A stretch of DNA of 64,000 nt from a virus, in IMG/VR virus record IMGVR_UViG_3300046474_000370, positions 1 to 64,000 of that record. One strand, written 5' to 3'. Both the position numbers and the translations under genes were made by a program. Below the pieces are notes generated by a model. It was given only the letters and a program-made list of their open reading frames with translations, was not told where the DNA came from and ran no database searches. Below, piece after piece: positions 70 through 20,800 of the stretch. Every line of letters starts with the position of its first letter. The stretch's first letter is position 1.

Positions 70-2844
70 ATGTCCAAAATCGACGATCTCGCCAACCTGC
101 CGGGCCAGCCCGCCCCCGACAACAGCCCGCGTGCCGCCCGTGGCCCGGCGCTGCCGCCGCTGCGCAGCGGGGTCGAACCGCCGGTGCTGACCGATACCGT
201 GGGCGCGCGCGGGACCGCCTATGTCGATCCGCAGCCAGGACTGCCGCGCGCCGCCACCGCCGTCGGGCGCGGCAGTCCGGCACTGCCGCCGCTCGGTGGC
301 GGGGTGGAACCGCCGGTGCTGACCGACCCGCTGCAGCCGGGCGGGACGCAGTTCGTGGAGCCGCCGACCGGCGGTGCGATCGCCAGCGGCGCGCGCACGA
401 GCACCGGCGCGCCCGCGCGGTCTGGATTCCCGCTGCCGGCCACGCCGCCGGACCGTGGTGCGGCGCTGGGCGAGGCGGTTGCCGCGCGCGGCGGCAACCT
501 GCCGCCGGTGCCCGAGGGTGGCGCCCTGCGTGCGCAGATGGGGGTGCTGACGCCGAATAACACGGCGCCGGTGGCCGACACCGTGCGCGCCGGGGCGCCG
601 TCACCGATTGCGCAGGCGGCGCTGGGCGAGCTGCCGGCCGCGCCGAGCACCCCGAACATGAACGTCAAGTCGGTCGGCTCGCCGCCGGTGCCGCCAGCGG
701 CCCCGAATGCGCAGCCGAATCCGAACGTGGCCAGCGGCCGCACCGGCGGCGCGCAGCGCACCGGCGTGCTGTCGACGCAGGCCGAGGAATTCTTGAACAG
801 CGGCGCGGCCAGCAAGATCCCCGACCAGGTCGGCAACCCGAAGCTGAACCCGGTGCCGCCGCAAGGGGTCGCCGGCGCCGATGCGGGCGCGCGTCAGGCC
901 GGGCGCGGCGCGCCGGTGCCGAACATGCCCAAGGCGGTCGAGCCGGTGGCCAGCCCGACGACGGGCACGCCGGCGGCCGGGACCGGGGCGAATGCCACCA
1001 GCGCCGGCGCCAGCGCTGCCAGCAGCGGCGGCCGCTACGGCCGCATCGCCGAGGCCGCCAGCAAGTCGGTGCGCGCGGCGCTGCCGGAAACGCTGGGCGG
1101 CACGCCGCTGGCCAGCGGCAGCAAGCTGTTGAACGGCGTGGGCAGCGCCGCGCGCTGGGTCGGCCCGGCGCTCGAGGCGGGCCAGGTGGCTGGGGTGGCG
1201 CTGGACAAGAAAAGCAGCAAGGCCGATGTGGCCGAGCAGGTCGCGGTGGGCACCGGGCGCGGAGCGTCGGCGCTGGCCGGCGCCGGTCTCGGCGGCGCCG
1301 CCGGGGCCGCCCTCGGCCCGGTCGGCGGTGTGCTGGGCGCGGTGGCCGGGGGCGCGGCCGGGTATTGGGGCGGCGACGAGGCCATCAGGAAAATCCGGTC
1401 GGTCTTCGGGCTGGATGAACGCACCCCGTATGAACGGATGCAGGAACGCCAGGCGGCGCCGCAAAAGCCGGGGAAACCGGCGGCCGGCATCGCGCAGGCA
1501 GCGGGCGCGGCGGCATCAGCGCCACCGGGCGCGAGCGTGCCGACCGTGCCGACCAGCGCCGCGGGCGCCACGCCGGCCGGCGCGACCAACTACGATGCGC
1601 TGGCCGCCCGCTACGCCAGCCTGGAGCAGGAACAGCGGGCCAGCCCGATCGCGTTCACCGCGATGGGCGGCGTCGGCGGGCATGAAATCCACTACAAGAA
1701 CGGCGATGTGGTGCGGCTCGCGAACGGGGCGCCGCTGCCGGACGATGCGGCGCGCTTTTATGCCGTGTCCGACGAAATGAATGTGCTGCGCAGCGGCCGC
1801 ATGCCGGGGCAGGCCGCTGCGCCGCAGCAGGCGCCGCAGATGCAGCCGACGCACAGCGCGCAGGCGGCCCCGGCGACAGCGCAGCCGGGCGACTTCGTGC
1901 GCGCATACGGTGGCGCGGCGCAGCGGGTCGGGCAGGCGCTCGGGGTTGACCCGAACGTGGTGCTGGGCCAGTGGGGGCTCGAAACCGGCTGGGGCAAGTC
2001 GATCATCCCCGGCACCAACAACCTCGGCAATATCAAGGACTTCTCCGGGGCGGGCGTGGCGGCCACCGACAACCAGACCGGCAGCGTGGATAAATACATG
2101 CAGTTCGCCAGCCCGGACGCGTTCGCCGACCATTATGCCGACTTGATCCGGCGCAAGTTCCCCGGCGCGGTCGGGGCCGGGGCCGATGCCGCCAAGTTCG
2201 GGGCCGGGCTGAAAGCCGGCGGCTATGCACAGGACCCGCAGTATGCGGCCAAGATCCAGGCCGCGTTCAAACTCGCGGCCGGGCAGGCGGGCGGCCAGCA
2301 GCAGGGCGGCGCCGCGCCGGCCGCGTCGGCGGGCACGGCTCCAGACTTCATGCGCGCCAAGCCGGTCCACGTCATCGAGGGCGTCAACGACTTCATGGAA
2401 ATGCCGGCGGCGGGCGGTGGGTTCGCCAAGGTGCCGATGTCGATCTACCAAGCGGGCGCGGCGCAGGGCAACGCCGCCGGGGCGCTGCAGGACTATCTGA
2501 GCAACCAAAACGCCGGCATCGCCAACCGGCAAAATCCGGCCAAGGCCGAACTGGACAAGACGATCGCCAATGCCGCGATCGCGGCGCAGTCCCATGTCCA
2601 GGCGGCGCAGGTCGGCAAGAGCCGCTACCTGGTCGCCGGCGGCGGGACCGACCCGGCCACCGGCCTGAGCATGCCGCAAGCCGTGTTCGACACCGTGCAG
2701 GGCCGGCCTGCCGACATGGCGCCGAAGACCTGGCCGATGCCGCCGGACACCGCGATCGAGGAGCTGCGCAAGGCGCCGCAGACTGCGCCGGCGTTCGACG
2801 CCACCTTCGGCCCCGGTGCCGCGCAAAAAGCAATGGGAAGGTAA
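70..2844 (+). CDS. Internal virion/ejection protein with GH73 (FlgJ-like) glucosaminidase domain
   Basis: P/A/G-rich N-terminus and a Gly-rich hydrophobic segment. Motifs VLGQWGLETGWG..NNLGNIK and GGYAQDPQYAAKI (~1890-2260). GGAG RBS upstream. Confidence 0.8.
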   Translation: MSKIDDLANLPGQPAPDNSPRAARGPALPPLRSGVEPPVLTDTVGARGTAYVDPQPGLPRAATAVGRGSPALPPLGGGVEPPVLTDPLQPGGTQFVEPPTGGAIASGARTSTGAPARSGFPLPATPPDRGAALGEAVAARGGNLPPVPEGGALRAQMGVLTPNNTAPVADTVRAGAPSPIAQAALGELPAAPSTPNMNVKSVGSPPVPPAAPNAQPNPNVASGRTGGAQRTGVLSTQAEEFLNSGAASKIPDQVGNPKLNPVPPQGVAGADAGARQAGRGAPVPNMPKAVEPVASPTTGTPAAGTGANATSAGASAASSGGRYGRIAEAASKSVRAALPETLGGTPLASGSKLLNGVGSAARWVGPALEAGQVAGVALDKKSSKADVAEQVAVGTGRGASALAGAGLGGAAGAALGPVGGVLGAVAGGAAGYWGGDEAIRKIRSVFGLDERTPYERMQERQAAPQKPGKPAAGIAQAAGAAASAPPGASVPTVPTSAAGATPAGATNYDALAARYASLEQEQRASPIAFTAMGGVGGHEIHYKNGDVVRLANGAPLPDDAARFYAVSDEMNVLRSGRMPGQAAAPQQAPQMQPTHSAQAAPATAQPGDFVRAYGGAAQRVGQALGVDPNVVLGQWGLETGWGKSIIPGTNNLGNIKDFSGAGVAATDNQTGSVDKYMQFASPDAFADHYADLIRRKFPGAVGAGADAAKFGAGLKAGGYAQDPQYAAKIQAAFKLAAGQAGGQQQGGAAPAASAGTAPDFMRAKPVHVIEGVNDFMEMPAAGGGFAKVPMSIYQAGAAQGNAAGALQDYLSNQNAGIANRQNPAKAELDKTIANAAIAAQSHVQAAQVGKSRYLVAGGGTDPATGLSMPQAVFDTVQGRPADMAPKTWPMPPDTAIEELRKAPQTAPAFDATFGPGAAQKAMGR

Positions 2845-2847
2845 GCA

Positions 2848-5800
2848 ATGGCCACCAACGACGACCAAACCAGCAACCCGTACGCCAAGTACCTCGAACA
2901 ACCGGCGGCGGCGCCGGCCGTGCCGGACCCGGCGGCGCCCAATCCGTACGCCAAGTACGTCGACCCGGCGTACCGGGCGCCGCCGCGCAATTCGGCGATC
3001 GGGACCATCCGCGACCTGGCGCTGGACGCGGTCGGGGGCGCGCTGGACATCGGCAAGCAGGGCTACGGCCTGGCCAACCTGGCCACCGGCGGCACCCTCG
3101 ACCCGGCTTCGCGCGCGCTGACCGGCGCGGCCGGGCGCGGCGTGAGCGCGGTGGGCAACTTGGTGACCGGGCAGCAGCTGGACGGGCCGACCGATGAACA
3201 GGCGCCGAGCATCGCGCAGGGCATGCAGCGGCTCGACGAGGGACTGGCCGGGGCGCAGACGCCGTTCCGCCAGCAGGTGCAGCAACAGCGCGCGCAGGCG
3301 ATCGCGCAGGCTGACGGCCCGCTGGACGAGGCCAAGGCGGCGCTCAGCGAGAGCCTGGGCAGCCCGACCATGCTGGCCGGCGACATCGTGCGCAGCGGGG
3401 CCTCGATGTTGGCGCCGGCGGTCGGCGCCGAGGCGGTGACCGCGCGCTTCGGGCCGCAGGTGTTCGAGCGCGCCGCGCAGCAGGCGCTGGCCGGCGGGGC
3501 GACCCGTGAAGCGGCGGCGGCGGCGGGGCAGGCGGCGGTCGGGCGCCTGGGCGAGCGCGCGGTGATCGGCATCACCGGGGTCGGCCAGGTGGCCGGCGGC
3601 GACGACGTCGACACCATCAACAAGGTGCTCGACACCAGCGGCCAGGCGCTGGCGGCCAACCCGGAGTACCAGCAGCTGATTGCGTCCGGCCTGAGCGATG
3701 TGGCCGCGCGCGACGAGCTGGCGCGCCAGGCGGGGCTGGTCAATGCGGCGGTGGCGGCGCCGATCTCGATGGCGGCCTCGAAGCTGACCGGGGCCGGGCG
3801 CCAGCTGGCCGAGGTGGCCACCGGCCACTATGCCGGCAAGGGCGTGCTCGACCTGCTGAAAGGCGGCGCCAGGGAAGCCGCGCAGGAAGTGCTGGAGTCG
3901 GGCGGCGAACGGCTCGGCGCCAACCTCGGCGAGCAGCAGTACGGCGACCAGTCGACCCCGACCTGGAAGGGGGTGGCGGGCGACGCGACGCTGGGCGGGC
4001 TGGCCGGCTTCTTCATGGGGGCGGGCGAGCACGTTGCCGGCGGCGAGCATGGGACCCAGCACGCGGTGCCGGCGCAGGGCCAGCAGAACGCGCCCGCCAC
4101 GACACCGGCCGCGGCGCCGGTGGTGCCGCCGGGCGCCGGGCCGAATACGCGCGCGGCCGCGGCCGGGCTCGCGGCCGGCAGCGGGGCCCAGCTGTTCCCG
4201 TTCAACACTGCCGAGGCCGCGCAGAAGCGCGCCAACGCGCAAACCAATACGACCGGCGTGGCGCACGAGGTGGTCGATCACCCGAGCGTGGCCGGCAGCT
4301 TCGCCGTGATGCCGGTGGCACCGGAGGCGGAGGCTGCCGCCGGCAAGCAGCAGCCGGCTGCGACGGCCGCGCCAAGCGTCGCGCCCCACGACGACCTGGC
4401 CGACCTGTTCGGCGCCCCGGTGGCGGCCGCGCCGGTCACGCCGGTGGATGTGGCCGCGCACGCGGCGGCCAGCTCGCCGCAGAACGAGCTGGCGCCGCCG
4501 TCCAAGGGCCAGATCGAGGCCAACAACGCCCCGCTGGGGCACGCGAAGGTGGGCGGGCTGTCGGTCTCGTTCGAGAACCCGGCCGGCTCGGTGCGCCAGG
4601 ACAAGCTGAACGACCCGCCGCAGTGGGAAACCACGCTGCAGGACCACTACGGCTACTTCAAGGGGGTGGCCGCGCGCGCGCCGGACAAGGAGCATGTCGA
4701 TGTGTTCGTCAAGCCGGGCACGCCGAAGGATTACAGCGGGCCGGCGTTCGTGGTCGACCAGAACGACGAGGACGGCAATTTCGACGAGCCGAAGGTGATT
4801 CTGGGCGCCGCTTCGCTCGACGACGCGCGCGCGACCTACCTGCGCAACTACGATGCCGGGTTCGAGAACCGGATTCGTGGCATCACGCAGCTGTCGATGC
4901 CCGAGCTGAAGGCGCGCCTGAAGGACCCGAACGGGTTCATGCAGCCGCAGCCGGCATCCATCCCGCAAAGTCCCGCCGTTCCCGCAAACGGGATCGCGCG
5001 GGAAAGCGGCCAGCCGGTGGCCGCCGACGGCCAAGGGGCGCCGACGTTCACCACGGCCAAGGGCACGACCTACACGGTCAACCCGGACGGCGGCACCGTC
5101 AGCGGCAAGGCCGCCGGGCCGTCGCAGCGCACGTTCTACCTGACCCCGGAGGACATGCAGAAGCTGGCCACGCCGTTGGCGGGCAAGGGCGGCGCGCGCC
5201 TCGGGCTGAACTTCGGCGGGGCGAACGACGACACGATCCAGCTGCGCCAGACCAAGGGCGCGGACGCCGGCAAGATGGTGCGCGACACGCTGGTGCGGCC
5301 GGCGAAGGCGCCGGCGGTCGGGCTGCACCCGCTGGAAGTGTGGCGCGATGGCACGTTTGACATTGGCGACCAGATCACCCAAATGGGCGGTGCGGCGGTG
5401 CAGCAGGCGCCGGCCGCCACCGGGGCAAGCCAGCAGGAGGCCGCGCCGCAGGTGCCGCCAGCCGAGGCCCCGGCAGGCAGCGCAGCGCTGAGCCAGCCGG
5501 AGGATGATCAGTTCGACTTGTTCGGCGAGCAGGGCGCGGGGCAATCCGCAGGCACTGTCACGCCCGTAGCGGACGCGGAAGCGCCGGCCAAGGCGGGCAA
5601 GCCGCGCCTGGCCGAGAACGCCGATGACTTGTACCGCGCGATCAAGGAAAAGACCGCGGAGGGCGTGTACGTGCCTGGGCACGGCATCCTGAATCCGGTG
5701 GTGCGCGTGCTTGGGCTGCCCGATATGCGGGTGTCGAATCAGGGTGTCGAGGCGATCGAACATGGCGGCATGGGCGTGCGCGCTGCCACCAAGGCCGAGA

Positions 5801-8800
5801 TCGACGATCTGCACGAGGCGCTGGAATACGACCAGGCGCAGGTGCTGGCAATGAGCAAGTGGGGCGGCAACCGCAGCGATACGCGGTCGCAGCCTGTGAT
5901 GGAATTGCACAGCCCGTCCGGCAACGCCTTCCAGCAACGCACGAATACGGCGCTGCCGCTTGACCAGGCCGACACCGGCTTGTCGCTCAATGATAAGGCG
6001 CAGCAGGCGCGCGACCAGGCAGGCCCCGCCACGCCCGCAGAAAGCGTCCGTTATGGCCTCAAGAACATGACCAGCGAGCGGAACGGGGCGCGCATCCGTG
6101 ATGCGAAAAAGTGGGGGTTCACCGACGACACGGTCCCGCTCTACTACACCATTTCCGATACGTGGGCGGTGGATGTGTCGTTCCCGAACTCCGAGATTGC
6201 GTTCAGTCATGGCCGTACCGGCAAGACCGGCAGCGACCTCGACGGCGCCGCTGACGCGTTCTATGTGAACGTCGCGCAGGCCCCGAATGGCAAGTGGGCG
6301 TCCGGTTTCAATTATGGCCCCGGCTACTGGAAGGCGCCGTTCAGCAGCAAGCAGTACGACACGCGCGAGCAAGCGATCGAGGGGGCCACGGCGGGCCTGA
6401 AACAATGGGTCAGGAATCTGGACGGCGTGGCCGACCTGGTGGACAAGGTGGCGGCCGAGGCGCAACAGCAGCGCACGGGCGAGCCCGCGCAGCCGGGCAA
6501 GGCGCCGCTGCCAAACGCCACCGCGCCCGAGCATGTCCAGACCGGCGTGGATGACCGTGAGCTGGACGAGATCGTGGCCGAGTTCAAAAACGCTCAGGCC
6601 GACATGATGCAGGGCGAGCACCCGGTCACGAACGTGTTCCAGCCGCCCAAGAAGGGCGAGATTTACCGGCTCGAGAAGAAGGCCGGCGTGCGGACGGAAA
6701 ACAAGAACGGCAAGAAGGTCTACCACCGCGACGCCGGCTGGATGACGGTCGAGGAAGCCAAGGCGCAGATCGCGGAGTGGAAGGCGCACGCACAGGCGCA
6801 GGGCGAGGACGAGGACAGCCGTAGCGCGAACAGCCGGCGCATCGTGCTGTCGCTGTTCGACCTCACCGGCAAGTGGTCGCAGCCGTGGGAGGACGCCGGC
6901 TATCAGGTGTACCGCTTCGACATCCAAGACAGCGACACGTACGAAGACCCGGAAACCGGCGAGGAAAAGCTGGTTGGCGACGTCAACAACATGAGCGTCG
7001 AGTTCTTCAGCGACCTGTTCGGGGACTTCGACGGCAACGATGTCTACGCGGTGCTGGCCGCCTGCCCCTGCACCGACTTTGCCGGGTCGGGCGCCAAGCA
7101 CTTCGCCGCCAAGGACGCCGACGGCCGCACGGTCGCCAGCGTCAAGCTGGTGCATCAGACGCTGGCCCTGATCGAATACTACAAGCCGCAGATTTGGGCG
7201 CTTGAGAACCCGGTCGGGCGCATCGAGGAGCTGGGCGGGCTGCCGCCGTGGCGGCTGGCGTTCGATCCGTACCAGCTGGGCGACCCGTACACCAAGAAAA
7301 CCCTGCTGTGGGGCCGTTTCAACGGCGACCTGCCGATCGCGCCGGTGTTCCCGAGCGAAGGCACGAAGATGCACGCGAAGTACGGCGGCAAGAGCCAGGC
7401 CACCAAGAACGCCCGCAGCGCGACGCCGGAGGGCTTTTCCTACAGCTTCTTCATGGCGAACAACGCGGTCGACCATCCGGTGATGGCGATCGCGAACAAA
7501 TATGACCGCCTGGACAACCAACTGATCAAGAAAGCGGTCGAGGCCGGCATCGGCGAGGACCAGATCAACGACGCGGTCGAGGACCATTACTACATGGACC
7601 AGGACGACGACGCGGCCAACGCGGCGATCCGGGAGCTGCTTGCGGAGCACGGCGCTACCGTCTCCGCCGCAGAGCCGCAGTCGGAGACCGACACCGACCG
7701 GGCTGCGGCCCTGTTGCAGTCGCTGGCGCACCAGGCCAGCCGCGGCGAACCGGCCACCAGTGCGGCCCAAGTTGGTTTGCGGGTGGCGCTCCAAAGGGAC
7801 AGCTGGGCTGAAGGCAAGACGGTCATCCAGGGCGGCGAGGTCTGGAACAAGGGCAACCTGCGCGCCACGATCGCGCCGGGCCGCGACGGCGGCATGCCGA
7901 CGATCACGATCAAGCAGCGCAAGCTGACCGCGAAGGAGCAGGCCGCCGAGGAGCAACGCCAGCGCACCGAAGCAGATCGGCAAAAGCACCGCGCCGAGGC
8001 GCGCGCGTACTGGAAGGTCGGCATGGCGGCCGCGCTGCCGGGGTTTGCCGATGTCGAGGGCAGCGACCAGAAATACACGATGGATCTGCCCGGCGTGATC
8101 GAGTCGATCGACGGCGATACCGCCGATGTGCGCATCTACGCTGCACCGGAATACGGTTACACGCAGGAAGACTACCCGCTGCACGGAAAACTGGCGCGCA
8201 AGGTGCCGCTTACCGAGCTGAGCAAGTACGGGCACGGGCTGGAGCGGCTGCAGAAGATCGTTGACGAGGGCAAGCTGGCCACCGGCGATGCCGAAGTGGC
8301 CGCGAGCGTGCGTGCGCGCACCGCCAAGGTCAAGTACCCGAACCGCAACTTCGACCTGTTCTGGCAAACCCACCCGACCGCGCTGGAAGACGCGCGCGAT
8401 CACAAGTGGTGGGCCGAGGTCGCCTTTTTGAACATGCGGCGCGGCGACACGTTCACGGCCGGCGACAAGACCTACACGGTCGAGGCGATCAAGAAGATCA
8501 AGGACGGTGAGCACACCCGCAAGGGCATGACGCTCAGGGATGATGCTGGCGGCGAGCATACGTTCTGGCCGATGGCGACGGAATGGCATAGGCTCGTGCC
8601 GCAGCTGGCCGCCCAGCTCAAGGCCGAGGACGAGCTGCCGGACACGGCCCAGCGGCCGCTGCTCGACATCCTCAAGCGGGACCCGGCCGCCCATGTGGAC
8701 GAGCAGGGCCGCGTCTACCTGCGTGACACGGCGCCAGGGGAGGAACAGCCGCAGCCTGGCCTGAAGAAGATGCAGAAGGCCAAGGAGACCAAGGGCGCCA

Positions 8801-11800
8801 AGCCCGGCCTGAAACAGATGCAGGAGGCGAAAGCGGCCAAGGACGCGCCCGCACCCACGGTGCCGCAGGCGGCAGCACCGGCCAGCCTGTTCGCCGACAA
8901 CAAGATTTTCACGCAAGATGCGGTGGACAAGGCGCGCGCGCTGCTCAAGGCCAAGCTGGGCCAGCTCAATTCGGGGATCGACCCCGAAATGCTGCAGGCC
9001 GGTATCACGATCGCCGGTGCCTACATCGAGGCCGGGGTGCGCAGTTTCGCCAAGTTCGCGAAGGCGATGGTGTCCGACCTGGGCGAAGGCGTGCGGCCGT
9101 ACCTGCGCAGCTTCTTCGAGGGCGCGCGCCATTATCCGGGGCTCGATACCAAGGGCATGACCAAGCCGGACGACATCGACGCCGCCGGCCAGCTGGGCAT
9201 CGACGAGGGCGACACGGTCGAGTATATCGGCGGCAAGACGCACAACCTTGCGCGCGGCGACCGGCGCGAAGTGGCGTGGGTGAACCCGCACCAGATCGGC
9301 TTTGCCGATGGCGGCAGCGCAAGCTATGACAGCGTGCGGCGCGGCGATTGGAAGAAGGTCGAGGTGGCGCACGAGCTGGTGCTGCCGCAGCCGCCGACGG
9401 TGGACGAGCGCAAGAACGCGCAGGTGCTGGCCGACCTGGCCGCGAATGCCGGCAACCCGGTCGACATCGACGGCCGCTTCGCGCCGGGCGTGTACGGCAC
9501 CCCGGAGCAGCCGCTGCGCTTCGTGTCGGGGATGTCGCGGCCGGCCGACTTCACGCGCCTGTTCGGCAATGGCAAGAACGTCGGCATTTCGGTGCAGGAG
9601 CTGTCGAAGGTGGCGGTGCCGCTCGTCGCGAAGCAGTTGGCGGAGGCGCAGGGCGCCTATCTGTTCGTCGATTCCGGCGCGTTCTCGACCCACATGAGCA
9701 ATGTGCGCGAGGCCGAGGCCGCCGCAAACGACCAGCGCGACGCCGCCGCGCCGCGCAAACTCGATTTCGATGCGCTGATGGCGCGCTACGAGGACCTGTC
9801 GCGCGCGGTGAGCAAGGCGAGCGACGGCATGGCGATGGGGCGCATGTTCCTGGTGATGCCCGACATCGTGGGCGACCAGGCCGGCTCGCTGGCCCTGGTC
9901 AAGCAGTACGCCGACGAGATCAACGGCTACGGGCTGCAGGCGATCATCCCCTTGCAGGGCGGGGAGCTGACGCTGACCGAAGCGTACCAGCAGATGATGC
10001 GCAATCTGGGCATGCAGCCGGACGACCATGCGCCGATCATCGGCATCCCGACCCAGGAGCTGGCGGTCTCGAACGAGGAACTGACCGACCTGCTGCGCCA
10101 GTACGGCGATTCGATCAATGGCGTGCATATCCTCGGCGCCGCTTCCGACGCGCGCCTGCAGCCGCGGCTGGCCGCGATCGAGGCCTCCGGCTACGACGGC
10201 AACGTGTCGGCCGACGCCAACCGCATCCGTGCGCTGATTACGGAGGAGCGCCCGCGCAAGCAGGCGTTCAAGCACCTCAACCAGTCGAACATGGCCGATG
10301 GCAGCCCGCAGCCGCGCGTGGTGCGCGACGACCAGCGCCCGGAACCGGGTAAACCGCTCAGTGAGTTGCAAAAGCGCAAACGCAGCGCCGAGACGGTCGA
10401 GCCGAGCGAAAAGACGCCGCAGAAGTATGGTCCGAGCGGCCGTGCGGCCCTGGCCAAGATGGCGCAGCGGGCCAATCTGTCCACCGACCCGGCGCATGAC
10501 AGCGACTCGGCCGACCTGGTCCGCTTCTTCGAGAAATACTATGAAGCTGGCCGGGATGGCAGGCAAATGCCGAAGGCCGACCTCCACCCGGATGACGCAC
10601 GTACCGCTTACGCGGCTGGCCAGAAAGATGCCGCCGCGCCGGCCAAGCCGAAAAAGGGCTTCGGCGGCGCCACGTTGCGCCAGGACTTCGGCGTCGAGCA
10701 TATCGACGGCTACGCCGAGACGGCCGAGTTCCCGCGCGAAAACCTGCACTACGACACGCCGACCGGCGGGGTCAAGGAAGCGTTCATTAAGAACGCGCGC
10801 GCCTACCTGAAGGATGTGACCGGCATGCTGCTCGATCACGGCTTCACCAACGCCACCGGGCGCGACGGCAAGGCGCTCAAGCCGGTGCGCGTCAACGAGG
10901 CCGGCCCGGCGGTATCGGGCGAGGTGTCGCTGACGATGTACCACGAGGGCGCCGAACGCGGGATTTACATCGACATCAGCGGCACCGTGGGCGGCATGAT
11001 GATCCCGGCCACGCGCTCGGGGGTGGCGGTGATGATGCGGGTGACCAAGAAGGACGACCCGTATAGCGGTGGCCAGAATATCTTTGCCGATACCAAACTG
11101 ACGGCGGCCGAGCTGGCCGACAAGGTGCGCGCTGCGGTGTTCGCCGCCAGTCCGAACCGGGATAAACTGGACGCAAGCGCTGCGCCGAACGACGACAAAG
11201 CGAAGGATGACAATGGTACTGGACCTGCAATTTCTGACCTGGCTGCGCCGGGAGTCAGCCGCACTGGCGCAGGAGTGGCCGCCGGGGGGCAAGCTGGAAC
11301 GCGACCTGCTGGCCCATTGGGCGCGCCACCGGCCGCAGATGCTGGCGCAGCTGGAAGCGGTGAAGGCGGCCGCCCCGCTGGCGCACATCCTGATCGACCG
11401 CATGATGAAGGCGACAACGGCCAACCTGCAAGCGGGGATGGCGCCGACGGACGCAACGGAACAAGCGGAACGGGACTGGTTGATGCTGGAACCGGAGTCG
11501 GAGGACCCGCCGTCGGGCCCGCCCGTGCCAATTACCACATTGGCGACCCCGAACAGCTGATCGGCGGCACGCCGAAGGTCCGGTTCGCCAACAACCGGCG
11601 CGCGATCGAGGCGTACCGCTCGATCACCGAGGAGGGCCGGGCGCCGGTCAAGGCCGACCTGGACGCGATGGCGGCCTACATCGGCTGGGGCTCGTTCGGC
11701 CAGGAGCTGTTCCAGGGTAATTGGAACACCCCGCGCCCGAAAGCCGGCTGGGAGCAGGAGGACGCGTGGCTGCGCGGCCACCTCGGCCAGCAGGAATGGG

Positions 11801-14800
11801 AGAGCGCGCAGCGCTCGATCACCAACGCCCACTACACGGACCCGATCACGGTCACGACCATGTGGAACATGGTGCGCGCGCTCGGCTTTACCGGCGGCCG
11901 CGTGCTCGAGCCGGCAATGGGCATCGGTAACTTCTTCGCCATGATGCCGCTCGACCTGGCCGAGAAAAGCCAGCTGACCGGCATCGAGATGGACGCGCTG
12001 AGCGGCGGCATGGCCAAGGAGCTGTACCCGAACGCGAACATCCAGATCAAGCCGTACCAGGACAGCAAGACCGCGGACGGCTTCTATGACCTGGTGATCG
12101 GCAACTGGCCGTTCGATAAGGATGGCCCGAGCGACCGCCGGTACATGAAGCTGAACCCGTCGCTGCACGACTTCTTCTTCCTCAAGGCGCTCGACCAGAC
12201 CCGCGCCGGCGGGCTGGTGGTGGGCATCACCAGTGCCGGCACGATGGACAAGAAGGGCCGTGCCACGCGCATGGAACTGGCCAAGAAGGGCGAGCTGGTG
12301 GCTGCGTTCCGGCTGCCGTCGGGCGCGTTCGAGAAGTACGCCGGCACGGCCGTGGTGACCGACATTATCGTGCTGCGCAAGCGCGAGACGCCCGGCAGCG
12401 GCCTCGAGCCGTGGGTCGAGCTGGGCGAGACCAAGGTCCCGGCTGGCGAGAAGATCGAGGTCAACAGCTATTACCTGCAGCACCCGGACCATGTCCTGGG
12501 CACGCTGAATTTCGGGCATGGCAGCACCTATGGCCGCCCGGCGATGATCGTCGAGCGCCCGGCCGACCTGATGGAACGGCTGGCGCAGCTGCCGGGCAAG
12601 ATGCCGGCCGAGACCTACCAGCCGCCGGCCAGCCGCAAGCAGGTCAGCTACCTGAGCAACAACACCGACGACCGCGAGGGCAGCGTGACGCTGGCCAAGG
12701 GCAAGCTGTACGTGGTGCGCGGGGAACGCCTGGTGCCGCTGGCCGACGAGGTCAAGTACGAGCTGAAGGACAAGGCCAAGACCGCGCAGCGCGAGGCCCA
12801 GCTGCGCCAGCTGATCGCGATGCGCACGGCATACGGCGCGCTGGTGGTGGCCGAGCGCGCGGCCGACCCCAAGACCGAGGCGCTGCGCAAGGATTTGCTG
12901 GGCAAGTACCAGGCCTTTACCAAGGCCTACGGCACGCTGGAGGAGTCGGACGGGCTGCGCATCCTGCGCGGCGTGAAGGACCCGTACTACTTCGCCCTGG
13001 CCTCGCTGGAGATCAACGGCAAGCCGGCGCGCATTCTGCGCGAGGCGACGCTGCGCGGGCGCAAGAAGATGGCCAACCCGAGCGTGCGCGAGGCGTTCGT
13101 GATGGCGCGCAACGAGAGCATGGACGTGAACCTGGCCACCATCGCCAAGCTGAGCGGCAAGAGCGAGGCGGCGGTCGCGGCGGAACTGGAGCAGGCCGAC
13201 GCGATCTTCAAGACCCCGGCCGGCAATTACGAGGTGGCCGATATTTACCTGTCGGGCAATGTGCGGCGCAAGCTGCGCGAGGCCCAGGATGCGCAGGCCA
13301 ACGCGCCGGCCGGCCAGGCGACTCCCGATTTCGCGCGCAACATCGCGGCGCTGGAACGGGTGCTGCCGAAGACGGTTCCGTACTTCAAGATCGAGGCCAA
13401 GCTGGGCGCGCCGTGGGTCAAGGCCGAGCATTACCACGACTATGTCGCCCGCCTGCTGGGCCTGACGCGCGACGCGGACAAGGCCGGCGTCGATGTGGCG
13501 ATGGTCAATGGCTCGTGGAAGGTCAAGTTCACCGACAAGTCGCTGAACAACCGGCCGGAAGCGGTGGCGCAGTGGGGCACCGGCTACCGGGGGGCGTCGC
13601 TGGACAAGATGCTGACGGCGGCGATGAACAACCGCAGCATCACGATCAAGACCCCGGACGCGGACGGCAACCTGCAAGTGGACGAGGCGGCCACCAAGGA
13701 GGTCAGCGAAAAGCTGGTCAAGCTGCGCGAGGAATTCGGCAACTGGATCTGGAAGGATGTCGAGCGCCGGGTCTGGCTGGAGCAGAACTACAACGAAGTG
13801 ATGAACGCGATCGCGACCCCGCGCTTCGACGGTTCGTTCCTGGAGTTCAACGGCATGACCCTGCGCCGCGGCGAGGACCCGTTCTCGCTGCGCCAGCACC
13901 AGGTCAATGCGGTGTGGCAGGGGCTGGTCAACGGGCGCGGCCTCTACGCGCACGAGGTCGGCACCGGCAAGACCTACACGATGGCGGGCCTGGCGGTCGA
14001 GTCGCGCCGCTACGGGCTGGCCAAGAAGCCGCTGATCTTCGCCCACAACGCCAACAGCGCGACCGTGGCCAAGGAGTTCAACGACATGTACCCGGCGGCA
14101 CGGGTGCTGTACCTGGACAACCTGACGCCCGAGGACATCGACGTGCGCATGCGCCAGATCGCCAACGACGATTGGGACGCGGTGATCGTGCCGCACTCGC
14201 TGATCGGGCGCTTCGCGCTGACCGAAAAGACGCTGATGGAGATCGCCGCCGAGGACATCGCGGCGATGGAGCAGGAGGCGCTGGACGCGGCCAGCGACGA
14301 CGGCGCAACGCTGACGATGGCCATGATGAACGACGAGGATGCGATGAAGAAGGTGCGCAGCGCGACCGCCAAGGAGCTGGTCAAGGCGCGCAACAAGATC
14401 ATCAAGAGCATCAAGGACATGGCGCTGCGCTCGTCGAAAGAGAGTGCGGTGTCGTTCGAGGACCTCGGGATCGACATGGTGATCGTCGACGAGGCGCACG
14501 AGTTCAAGAAGCCGCCGGTCGCCACCAAGATGAAGATGCGCGGCCTGAACACCGGCACCTCGAACATGTCGATCGCGCTGCGCTTCTTGACCGACTACGT
14601 CAAGCGCGAGAACAACGGGCGCGGGGTCCACCTGTTCACCGGCACCCCGATCACCAATACCCTGACCGAGCTGTACAACATGATGCGCTACGTCATGGAT
14701 GACGTGATGAAGCGCGACGGCATCAAGGATTGGGACAGCTGGTTCAACACCTTCGCCGATTCCAACACCGACGTCGAGCTGACCGCGGCCGGCGAGTACG

Positions 14801-17800
14801 AGGCGGTCACGCGGCTGGCCAGCTTCGTCAATACGGCCGAGCTGCGCCGGATCGCCGGCGAGTTCATGGACATCGTGTTTGCCGACGACATGCCGGAGTT
14901 CGCGCCACGCCCGACGTCGACCGGCAAGACCATGAGCGACACGCTGAGCGACGCCGAGCGCGACGAGCTGATCAACGGGCGCAGCGAGCAGCCGGTGGGC
15001 CGGCCGTACAAGAAGATCGTGGTCGATACCGCCCCGCTGGGCAACGAGCAAAGCAGAATGCTGGACCACTTCAAGGCGCTGGCCAGGCAGTTCAAGCAGG
15101 CCACCAAGAAGGAGCGCCGCGAAATGATGCTCAGCGGCCACCCGGCCAGCCCGCTGCTGGTCGAGACCGGGGCCGCGAACGCCGGCATGGACCCGCGCCT
15201 GGTGGACATGGATGCCGCCGACGAGCCGAACAGCAAGGTCAACCGGCTGGTGCGCAACGTCGCCGCGCTGTACCAGCGCGACGCGCGGGCGACCCAGGTG
15301 GTGTTTCTGGAGCGCGGGTTTGTCGATGAGGCGACCCGCACCAAGACCAACCCGGACGGCACCAAGACCGTGACCAAGGTCAAGAAATTCAACCTGGTCA
15401 AGGACATGGTCGAGAAGCTGGTCGCGGCCGGCGTCAAGCCGGGCGAGATCGCCGTGGTGGACGGTTCGACCAGCAAGGAAAAGCGCAAGCAGATCGCCGA
15501 CCTGATGAACAAGTCGAAGATCCGGGTCGTGATCGGCAACACCAAGACGCTCGGGGTTGGCGTGAACATGCAGGAAAACCTGCGCGCGATGCACCACATG
15601 GACGCGCCCTGGATGCCGGGCGAGCTGGAGCAGCGCAACGGGCGCGGCTGGCGCCAGGGCAACAAGTGGAACACCGTGCTCGAGTACCGCTACATCACCG
15701 AGCGGCTGGACGGACGGCGCTGGCAGGTGCTGGCGGTCAAGGACCGTTTCATCAAGCTGTTCCTGAAGGCCGACGAGAACACCCGCATCATCGACGGTGA
15801 TGCGGTCGACCTGGAGGAGGGCGAGGGCGGCGGTGACCTGGCGGCCACGCTGTCGGAGGCGGCAGGCGACCCGCGCGTGCTGGTGCGCGAAAAGCTCAAG
15901 GCCGATATCGAGAAGCTGGAGAACCGCGAACGCCAGCACACCTATGCGCTGAGCGATGCGGCCGACATGGCGCGGAAGCTGGCGACGGAGACCGAGCGGC
16001 TGGCACAGCAACTGCCGCTGGTGCAGGCCGACGCGGCGCAGTTCGAGGCGGCACGCGCGACCTTCAGCATGACCATTGGCGGCCAGCAGTACACCGAGCG
16101 TCCCGCCGCCGACGCGGCGATCGCCGCGGTCGAGGCCCAGCTGAACGGCGATAAGGTGACGCAGCGCCAGATCGGCAGCATCCACGGCTTCACGCTGACG
16201 CTGCAGCGCTCCCTCGTCGGCTACTACGTGAAACTGCGCGGCAAGCAGACGTTCGAGGCCGGGGTGGCCAGCGTGGCGTCGATCGAGGCGGCGCTGCGCA
16301 AGCTGGCCAAGACGGCCGCCGAGACCCAGCAGAAGATCGCGGACAACAAGGCCAGCTACGTGCGCATGGTCGAGATGCAGAAGGAGCCGTTCGGGCAGGC
16401 CGCGCTGCTGGAGAAGAAGCGCAAGATGCTGGCCGACCTGATCGCCGATCTGGCGCGCAACCCGGAGCCGGCACCGGGCTGGCTGCGCCACGGGGCGCCG
16501 GCCAATACCGCGATCTACGTCGGCGGCGAGCAGCGCGTGGTGGAAGGGCACAAGGCGAACAAGGACGGCTATTTCCTGGTCACCGAGGCCGGCGATGTGC
16601 CGTACCTCGACGCCACCGACGCCAGTGGCATGCCGTTGTTTGAGCCGGTCAACGGCGAGGAGCGCGGGCTGACGCTGAGCGCCCCGCCGAACATCCTGGA
16701 TGTACGCCGCCAGCGGCGCGCCGAGGACCGGGAGCGCAGGGGAACGGACCCCGACCCGGATGTGGCCAAGCTGTCGCGCGGCAGCGCGGGCCGGGGCATG
16801 GCGCACGGTGTCGTGCGGCAGCTGGCCGACGCCATCGCCAGCCGCTGGCACGAGGCGCCGCCGGTGACGGTGGTGCAGCGCGTGGCCGATCTGCCGTTCG
16901 CGGCGCCGGCCGATACCCGTGGCGCCTACGCGCAGGGCCGCGTGTGGCTGGTGGGCGACAACCTGCACACGCCCGACGAGGTGCAGTTCGTGATGGCGCA
17001 CGAGGTGCTGGGGCACCGCGGGCTGGCCGCGATCCTGGACAAGCAGGCGCTGACCCAGGAGCTGAACCGGCTGCGCCTGATCAACCCGGAACTGGCCAAG
17101 GCGGCGCGTGCGCAGGCGACCAAGTACGGCTACGACCTGACGCTGGCGACCGAGGAGGCGCTGGCCGACATGGCCGGCGAGGGCAAGGCCATCAACGGCT
17201 GGCAGAAGTTCGTCAACCTGGTGCAGCGGGCGCTGCGCGCGGTCGGGCTGGACCGGGCGGCGGACTGGATCGAGGGCAGGACGGCGGCCGAGACCATGAG
17301 CTTGCTGCGCCGGGCCCGCGAGGCGATCGAGGGCGGCCAGCAGCCGCACCTGTTCGGGCAGGCGCAGGCGGCCGCGTTCTCGGATGGCGCACCGAGCCGC
17401 TGGTATTCGGCGCTGGCGCGCAAGGTCGAGGCGCTGCCGATGAAGGCGGCACCGGCGGCGCAGTGGGTCGGCACGCTCAACGGGCTGGCCAAGCAGGGCG
17501 TCAGCACGGAGGAAATCGAATGGTCGGGCGTGACCGACTGGCTGCGCATGCAGGATGGCAAGGTCAGCAAGGCGCAGCTGCTCGATTACCTGGCGCAGAA
17601 CGGGGTGCGGGTCGAGGAAGTGATGCACGCGGAGCCGGACGACACGGCCGACCGCGAGACCTTCGTCGACGGCGAGGTGGAGCAGGACCGCGCCGCGCAC
17701 CAGCGCGAGGTCGACGAGATGATTGCCGACCAGTTGGGCGATGCGGCCGGCGGCCATTACGTGGCCGAGACCGAGGACGAGGACGGCAACACGGTGTGGG

Positions 17801-20800
17801 CGCTGCGGCAGGACGCATCCGACGAGGACCTGGAGCTGTTCGACGACGAGGGCAAGGCGCAGGCGGCGGCCGACCTGGCCAACGAGCGCCATGACGCCGA
17901 GCGCGAGACGGACCTGCGCAACAACGCCACCGCGTTCGACGAGGACGCCGCGCGCCACCGGGCCGAGCGCGAGTGGGACCAGCACCACGCGTCGGACGAC
18001 ACCCGCAGCTACCAGCAATACACGCTGCCGGGTGGCGAGCATTACACCGAGCTGTTGCTGACGCTGCCGCAGCGCGAGCCGTCATTCGCGCTGGACGACT
18101 ACATCGGCGAGTTGAGCGACAAATACGGCTGGGTGATCGACGGCGTGCTGCACACGCCCGGATGGAGCGAGGCCGACCTGACGCAGGAGGAGCTGGCCAA
18201 GCTGCGCAGGTTGCAGCAAGATGACCTCGAGGAGCGGGCGCAGCGGGCCAACGCTACCTATCAATCGCCCCATTGGAGAGCGACGCGTAACGTGCTGGCC
18301 CATATCCGCGTCAACGAGCGGCGCGACGTTGACGGCAAGCGCGTGCTATTTGTCGAGGAATTGCAGAGTGATTGGGCGGCCGACAGCCGCCGCCATGAGG
18401 TGGCAATGCGGAAGCTGCGCACCGCCGTGATGGAGGCGGCCACGGCGCGCGGCGCCGACCTGGCAGCGGTGGCGCAGGCATTCGATTTCATCAGCGAGGA
18501 GCCGTTGGAAACGACGGAGCGCCCGACGACCTGGGCCTGGGAGTTGCTGCGCACGGCCACTGGCGACACCGTCGACCTGAACGCGATCCACGCCATCCGC
18601 GACGACCTGCCGAAGCCGGCCGCAGCGCCGTTCACCGGCCAGACCGGGGCCTGGGTCGCACTGGCGATCAAGCGGGTCATCGCGTACGCCGCCGAGAATG
18701 GGTTTGACACGGTGGCGTTCGTCAACGGCACGCAAAGCACCGAGCGCTTTTCGCTGCGGCAGCGTGTCGAGGCGATCCGCTATGTGCGGAAGGATGGCGG
18801 CAAGTATGACGTGTGGGCGGCCGACGAGAGCGGCGCGGCGTTGAACCGCACGGTCGACCAGCAGGGGCTGACGCCAACCGAAGTCGAGAAGTTCGTCGGG
18901 GTCGAACTGGCCGCCAAGATTTTCAAGGGCGAGGGGGTCGAGCAGGACGGTGACATGGTGCTGTCCGGCCTCGACCTGGAGCTGGGCGGCGAGGGCATGA
19001 AGGCCTTCTACGACCAGATCGTGCCGAAAGTCGCGAATGACGTGCTGAGGAAGCTGGGCGGCGGCAAGATCGGCTCTGTCTTCTTGCCGGATATTTATCG
19101 CGAGCCCGAAATGACCGGGCTCGACGCGGACGGCGAGGGGGTTTTCGACGATGGCCACAGCGGCGAGCAGCCCGGCTTCGACATCACCCCCGAGCTGCGC
19201 GCCACCGCGCTGGCCGGCCTGCCGCTGTTCGCGCGTGACGCCAATTGGGGCCGCTCGGTGCGCGACCCGAACTACCGCCAGGTGGTCAAGCGCACCCCCG
19301 AGCTGCAGGCCGCGGCCCAGCAGCTGAAGGACGGCAAGCTGAGCAAGGCCGAGTACGCGCGCCTGGTCGAACAGTACAAGCCGGCCAGCGAGTATGCGTT
19401 CGTGCCGCCGCCGGCGGGCGAGCAGGACATGCGCGAAGCGCTCAGCTCGGACAAGGTGGCGCGCATCGGGGCGCCGCTGGCCACGCTCGAGGCCGGGCAC
19501 CCGGTCGGGCTGCGGCTGGATATCCCGGCCTACGCCAACCACGGCGTGTGGGTGGTCGCGGTCCACGAGCAGCTGGCCAGTTTCGCGGCCGGCAAGTCGA
19601 TCGGCTATGACAGCATGGCGGCCGTCACCAACGCGACCTTCGGGGTGGTGCAGCGCGCGGCGCTGGATATCGCGGCCGGCAAGGCGAAATCGACCATCGC
19701 CGTGATCAAGGGCAGCTGGCGCCCGATCTCGCGCGAGAAGGCGATCGAGGCGGCGCAGCGCGCGCTGGCCCTGCCCGAGTGGCGCCAGGTCGGCATGCAC
19801 CCGGAGCGCCATGCGTATTTCTTCGACCGCGGCACCATGCGGCCGGTGGTGGCGGCCGATGCGGTGATCCAGGTGGGGCCGCTGGTGCTGGCGCGGAATG
19901 TCAAGTACGGCAGCATGGATGATGTGCTGTTTTCGCGCGGAGATACCGCGTCGGTGGACCATGTCGCGGCCGGCATCACCCGCCGTCAGTTCCTCGCCGC
20001 CGCCGCGCTGGCGGCCACCGTCGGCAGGGCGCGCGCTTCCGCCGCGCTTGGCAAAGCCCAGGCCCTGCCGGGCGACATCCTCACCCAGCCGTTGCCGGCG
20101 TCGGTCGCGCAAACCTTGCGCGGCACGGGGAGCGGCATGGCCAATCCTGACGGTGCTCAGGCGGTCGACGCCGCGCTGGGGCAGATCGCCGGCCACGGCC
20201 CTGTCGAGCTGCGCGCGCTGGCGGCGCAGATCCGTTCGCTGACCCCGGCCACGGATACGATGCTGACGGTGGACGACAGCACGGCTGCCGACGCACACGG
20301 GGAGGTGGCGCTGGACGGGCCGGTCGCGCACTTGAAACTGTACACCGCTGGCGGGCGCACCGGGTTGACCTACGAAACGTTCCTGCATGAGGCGCTGCAC
20401 CTGGCGGTGGCGGCGCGCTACCAGACCATCGCGGCCGCCACGCAACGCGGCGGCAGTGACGCACTCCAGATGCCAGCGCCGGCGGCGGCCGCCGCGATGG
20501 CGCAGCTCACCGACCTGTGGCAGGAGTTTGGGCGCGCGGTCAAGTCGCGCCCTGCGCCGACGGACAAGGCCACCAGGGTCTCGGTGGTCGAAGCCGTCTT
20601 GCATCAGGACGAGTTTTTCGTGCGCGCGCTGACCGACCACCGGCTGCAAGCGTACATGGCAGGCATGGAGTATGAAGGCAAGAGCCTGCTGCAACGGTTC
20701 AAGGATTGGGTTGCCGGCTTGTTCGTGAAGGATGGCGTGCGACCGTCGTGGCTGGACGCGGCGCTGCTGGCGTCGGGTGAACTGGCCGGGGCGATGCCCG

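Follow-up and report, generated by a model that had tools for sequence, protein, structure and literature searches.

Same-strand embedded genes are a known feature of phage genomes, including Rz1 inside Rz of lambda and genes B, K and E of phiX174 (reviewed in PMC8227390); in such cases a complete gene with its own start typically lies wholly inside another gene on the same strand in the +1 frame, and relatives keep both frames. Polyvalent proteins of phages and conjugative elements (Iyer et al. 2017, PMC5512222) are built from modules joined by linkers, and a text search of that paper found no mention of frameshifts, overlapping genes or TnpV, its two uses of "nested" describing a hairpin structure. 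DarB of phage P1, a methyltransferase-helicase antirestriction protein packaged in the virion, contains a module homologous to one found in the gene described here. TnpV (Pfam PF14198), first named in Tn4451/Tn4453-type mobilisable transposons, is a small helical protein of about 100 residues with no established function.

Here, we describe a small gene of about 115 codons that lies one base out of frame inside the linker of a 7099-codon DarB-like phage gene, show that related phages keep both readings, and examine its initiation signals, selection and linkage to the neighboring methyltransferase module. We found no published description of this arrangement in the literature we searched.

A second reading frame within a DarB-like polyvalent gene

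We analyzed a window of 64,000 nucleotides, positions 1 to 64,000 of the 101-kb IMG/VR virus record IMGVR_UViG_3300046474_000370 (67% GC). The window holds a giant ORF at 2848–24147 (+) in which Pfam identifies InPase, SNF2-rel_dom, Helicase_C, ResIII and ART-PolyVal domains and which PHROGs assigns to PHROG 10089, "DarB-like antirestriction"; tblastn likewise yielded hits to annotated DarB-like genes. The architecture is that of a polyvalent virion-type protein in the sense of PMC5512222.

An earlier note had proposed a hidden dual-coding region at 11203–11560, and we found its coordinates and content to be as described. A +1-frame ORF is open at 11207–11560 (+) for 117 codons, and a second ATG at 11213, which follows an AAGGA (11203–11207) with 5-nt spacing, would give 115 codons plus TGA (11213–11560). 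At either ATG, a single T-to-C change would remove the start while staying silent in the giant frame (AAT to AAC at 11214, and GAT to GAC at 11208). Over 11203–11523 the giant frame instead reads a G/A/P/D-rich low-complexity stretch with 51% A/T-ending codons, against 9% in the rest of the gene. That stretch ends in ANYHIGDPEQLIGGTPKVRFA, the start of the methyltransferase module.

Across 11203–11560 the GC3 of the giant frame falls from about 0.92 (0.91 for the whole gene) to 0.45–0.53, or about 0.47, while the +1 frame has GC1/2/3 of 0.71/0.50/0.84, close to the whole-gene values of 0.68/0.46/0.91. Scanning the entire 21.3-kb ORF, we found 11068–11607 to be the only stretch where the frame with the highest GC3 clearly is not the giant frame; 5308–5577 was also flagged, but as a tie at 0.83. 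Openness of the +1 frame alone is not significant at this GC content, as other alternative-frame ORFs of 170–760 aa occur in the same gene. It is the phase switch, together with conservation in relatives, that makes the observation more than chance.

The small protein belongs to a family of small proteins. Neither Pfam nor PHROGs gave a family for it, but six metagenomic proteins of about 115 residues are 57–80% identical with 52 invariant columns, and a profile search of 1.84 billion representatives yielded 201 clusters at E<=1e-3. Using that alignment, AlphaFold2 predicts a five-helix bundle (helices 7–21, 29–41, 43–51, 55–75 and 80–91) with a mean pLDDT of 90.2 and pTM of 0.75, and an acidic tail at lower confidence; the protein is acidic, with a pI of 5.1. 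The predicted fold has no informative structural match: Foldseek against PDB and BFVD returned nothing below E 1e-3 (the best BFVD row was Q8W6J4_2, E 0.048, TMq 0.55), and a wide VIA-align search gave a best Z of 5.6 (2apl, PG0816), which is uninformative for a helical bundle. Searches of solved structures with the family profile (A2) and a second profile (A5) found nothing, and the ten longest family members carry no extra Pfam domain.

Conservation of the nested arrangement

To determine whether the arrangement is conserved, we collected 27 loci with a family member from viral contigs, bacterial genomes and one GenBank phage, spanning phages and prophages with GC of 0.50–0.69 and small-protein identity down to about 30%. 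In 25 of the 27 the small ORF lies wholly inside an ORF of 1400–7100 codons, always in that ORF's +1 frame. We then recoded each small protein synonymously with the host gene's codon usage and found that the giant frame came out stop-free with a median probability of 0.025 per locus, and in several loci of 0 to 1 in 3000. The summed log10 is −48, although the loci are phylogenetically related and this figure overstates the significance.

The two exceptions are informative. In a Skermanella contig the domain is the in-frame N-terminus of a longer protein, and in Rhodoblastus a solitary copy sits between trmD-like and DsbA-like genes, with a second copy elsewhere in that genome. A tblastn search of a plasmid collection gave no match, and in 400 sampled genomes of the class of the Delftia host only the centre genome had a match.

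Selection on the two frames

We next asked which frame is under protein-level selection. In eight close pairs the small frame has dN/dS of 0.17–0.39, whereas the giant frame on the same bases has 1.0–2.1 and the flanking methyltransferase module 0.06–0.20. For the window and its closest relative (locus L002) the whole-ORF signal is weak, at 0.66 against 0.85, but over the structured core of that pair (codons 1–95) it is 0.51 against 1.49. The last 20 codons show no synonymous change in the small frame because they overlap the conserved methyltransferase start. Small-frame synonymous divergence is somewhat lower than in the flanks, which fits an added need to avoid stops in the giant frame. The giant frame is therefore kept open but is otherwise free to vary, as expected of a linker, while the small frame encodes the constrained protein and carries the genome's codon signature, so that it is probably the older frame. 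The direction of overprinting is thus probably the reverse of that given in the earlier note, which took the small gene to be the overprinted one.

Initiation signals at the nested start

All 27 loci have an ATG at the aligned N-terminus, and 21 of 27 have a Shine-Dalgarno-like GGAG, GAGG or AGGA at −16 to −5, against 9% of 1627 control +1-frame ATGs; the AAGGA of the window is also present in L002. The 60 nt around the ATG fold far more weakly than control windows from the same genes, falling within the weakest 10% in 19 of 25 loci. In the window, this lower-GC region (11183–11242, +) has an MFE of −4.4 kcal/mol against a mean of −20.0 for controls, and no control window is as weak. No sigma-70-like promoter lies upstream of the nested ORF. 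A stop in the small frame lies 1–12 codons before the ATG in nine loci, only one codon before it in three of them, and no slippery X XXY YYZ heptamer is conserved near the 3' end, one occurring in 2 of 27 loci. These results favor independent internal initiation and argue against frameshifting into or out of the giant frame.

Linkage to the methyltransferase module

In all 25 nested loci the small ORF ends 5–30 residues before, or just inside, the first motif (N[YF]HI..P...GG...RF) of an N6-adenine methyltransferase module, while the modules upstream differ between loci. In the window, this module begins at 11530 (11530–13884, +; NYHIGDPEQLIGGTPKVRFA...), and the last 10 codons of the small ORF overlap the motif.

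We sampled eight cultured phages whose DarB-like genes match the methyltransferase module (VvAW1, Atu_ph08, POI1126, BcepIL02, Pavtok, SopranoGao, Cimandef and 8P), and all carry a +1-frame ORF of 90–130 codons with an ATG and an SD-like motif. In seven of them the ORF ends 108 nt before to 12 nt past the start of the methyltransferase match, and in Atu_ph08 it lies about 570 nt upstream. Each record annotates only the giant CDS there, as does that of vB_PaeM_USP_25. In contrast, P1 darB begins directly with the methyltransferase module, about 90 codons before the residue aligned to position 101 of the query; it follows its own promoter and has no N-terminal linker, leaving no room for a nested ORF. 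The nested gene is therefore not a property of DarB proper.

A possible remote relationship to TnpV

The earlier note had suggested a likeness to TnpV, which has some basis, but only as possible remote kinship through intermediates. Pfam TnpV does not hit this protein or six close relatives even at E<=10, nor any of the six frames of the phage record. However, the two families share the pattern W..HRP.M...L...G.L ... G(M/L).P..A...A, and the family HMM scores the nested ORFs of Atu_ph08, Pavtok, POI1126, SopranoGao and VvAW1 at 16–27 bits and two Verrucomicrobiota proteins, L041 and L040, at 21.8 and 12.4 bits. On Pfam TnpV, in turn, L040 scores 29.4 bits (over the gathering cut-off of 27 bits), L041 25.4, Pavtok 21.9 and SopranoGao 17.7. 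An hhalign comparison of A2 with four TnpV-hit proteins aligned 56 columns with a probability of only 51% (50.7%; E 1.6e-4), and the Atlas returned only unnamed clusters plus one weak lead, a cluster with TnpV on 11% of members (score 0.81).

Interestingly, the L040 and L041 ORFs are themselves nested, in the +1 frame, in the G/A/P-rich first 100 or so codons of a methyltransferase gene that starts 52–67 nt upstream of them, which could represent an intermediate stage of the overprinting. By contrast, the two classical TnpV genes that we examined (L037 and L038) stand alone, with no methyltransferase gene within about 1.5 kb. We therefore treat the small protein, tentatively, as a remote relative in a TnpV-like superfamily and not as a Pfam TnpV member.

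Discussion

Taken together, these data support with high confidence a model in which bases 11213–11560 are a genuine protein-coding gene lying entirely inside the giant DarB-like gene, as the earlier note had inferred in proposing a dual-coding region that gene callers miss. In this model, ribosomes translating the giant gene read these bases as a disordered G/A/P-rich linker between an upstream module and the methyltransferase-helicase module, while others start at the internal AAGGA-ATG in an unstructured patch of mRNA and make a separate acidic protein, predicted to have five helices and a disordered acidic tail. Translation itself is inferred, without proteomic or ribosome-profiling data, and for the window's closest pair the selection signal is only moderate. 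Compared with Rz1 or the embedded genes of phiX174, the host gene here is a 21-kb polyvalent virion-protein gene, the overlapped part of the host is only a disordered linker, the nested gene appears to be the older frame, and it is tied to one module rather than to a whole gene.

Among alternative explanations, we consider it unlikely that the small frame is a relic of an ancestral gene that was swallowed when neighboring genes fused into the giant ORF and is no longer expressed, at least in this phage. The codon signature of the small frame, by which it looks like the older one, and the weak whole-ORF dN/dS against L002 would fit this view, but the frame, the ATG, the SD-like motif and the unstructured start are kept across 25 loci down to about 30% identity, the dN/dS is 0.17–0.39 in other pairs and 0.51 in the core of this one, and a dead frame would accumulate stops. 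Less likely still is that the helical domain is made as part of the giant protein by programmed frameshifting, with a +1 shift bringing ribosomes in from upstream or a −1 shift taking them out into the methyltransferase module. The ORF abuts that module in every locus, and in one locus (L012) the domain is fused in frame to a longer protein, but the upstream stops in nine loci and the lack of a conserved slippery site near the 3' end speak against recoding, and the conserved initiation signals would not be needed. No giant in-frame form was found in two searches for longer proteins, although this is weak evidence.

It is similarly improbable that an upstream gene, the small gene and a methyltransferase-helicase gene are separate, with the giant frame open across the small gene by chance. 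At 67% GC the chance of a stop-free giant frame in this window alone is about 0.5, but in lower-GC relatives it is 0.0–0.04 per locus, yet 25 of 27 are open. Moreover, no stop codon ends the upstream part, and no start codon lies in the giant frame near the methyltransferase start, arguing also against re-initiation of a separate methyltransferase protein at the stop of the small ORF. Finally, although long alternative-frame ORFs are common in this gene, a chance ORF is contradicted by the codon phase switch, the 201 homologous clusters, the confidently predicted fold and purifying selection.

The function of the small protein is unknown. Because it always sits at the 5' edge of the methyltransferase module, whatever module lies upstream, we tentatively infer that it is a trans-acting partner of that module, possibly a chaperone, an inhibitor in the producing cell, or a packaging or ejection adaptor. 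The earlier note had proposed a chaperone, inhibitor or regulator, but only the tight genetic linkage is shown. The occasional in-frame fusion to a polyvalent protein and the acidic tail fit such a role, whereas a complex prediction of the small protein with the 785-residue methyltransferase module, each with an alignment, gave no verdict (scores 0.00, 0.54 and 0.00) and is evidence neither for nor against binding. The main alternative is an unrelated anti-defence or takeover protein that merely occupies a tolerant linker. On the partner view, the gene is kept inside the linker so that partner and module are inherited and expressed together when modules are shuffled. Encoding it there would then be a general way for polyvalent proteins to carry a partner that cannot be separated from its module by recombination, a possibility that would make linker-embedded accessory genes a hidden layer of coding in giant phage and conjugative-element genes.

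Well-supported, long, same-strand overlapping genes are rare in bacteria and phages. This one is conserved across many phage lineages, including cultured phages of Pseudomonas, Klebsiella, Erwinia, Burkholderia, Ralstonia, Vibrio, Ochrobactrum and Agrobacterium, yet every GenBank record we inspected annotates only the giant gene, showing that annotation pipelines systematically miss a whole protein family. The arrangement gives a clean natural case for studying how two frames co-evolve, one a folded protein and the other a disordered linker, and points to an unknown accessory factor of the injected DarB-like antirestriction proteins.

Nested ORFs and copies of the small gene in other loci

The nested +1 ORFs of Burkholderia phage BcepIL02 (L050:1190-1513), Ralstonia phage Cimandef (L053:1142-1465) and Pseudomonas phage 8P (L054:1142-1414) occupy the same position and frame, yet show no detectable similarity to the family profile or to Pfam TnpV. 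They may be more diverged relatives or independent occupants of the linker. In the Rhodoblastus acidophilus DSM 142 locus (L014:4914-5291), we observed a solitary copy of the small gene between a trmD-like and a DsbA-like gene, with no methyltransferase-helicase nearby, and the same genome has a second copy at G005:C61:152413-152775. At a contig end of Skermanella aerolata (L012:4914-5508), the small-protein domain is the in-frame N-terminus of a longer protein, which continues into an 'FLKSWYLGVR' module that other loci carry upstream of the nested ORF, although the contig ends before more can be seen. In two Verrucomicrobiota genomes (L040:1725-1792, minus strand, and L041:1449-1500), the methyltransferase ORFs begin with ...QLDLFD and ...QLDFLG, just before the nested TnpV-like ORF.

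Further features of the giant gene and its surroundings

A 5508-codon ORF (window 1516-18042, minus strand) runs antisense to the giant gene. It lies in the register where the first base of each antisense codon pairs with the sense third base (GC3 0.91), so stops are rare, and it is most likely a shadow frame rather than a gene. On the plus strand, a 924-codon ORF (window 70-2844) ends 4 nt before the ATG of the giant gene. Residues 596-822 of this ORF match a PHROG annotated as endolysin, and it may be another virion-associated lytic or polyvalent protein.

Within the giant gene, we identified a second DNA methyltransferase-like module upstream of the nested ORF, at window positions about 6820-7500 (giant residues about 1325-1550), supported by a match to PHROG 757 at E 5.6e-42 and only weakly by Pfam C-5 DNA_methylase. 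The giant protein therefore carries two methyltransferase modules. Notably, the 7099-residue protein (window 2848-24147) has only 2 cysteines, and the roughly 3000-codon stretches that we read of the giant ORFs in two further loci, L013 and L031, have none. Cysteine avoidance may relate to packaging or ejection.
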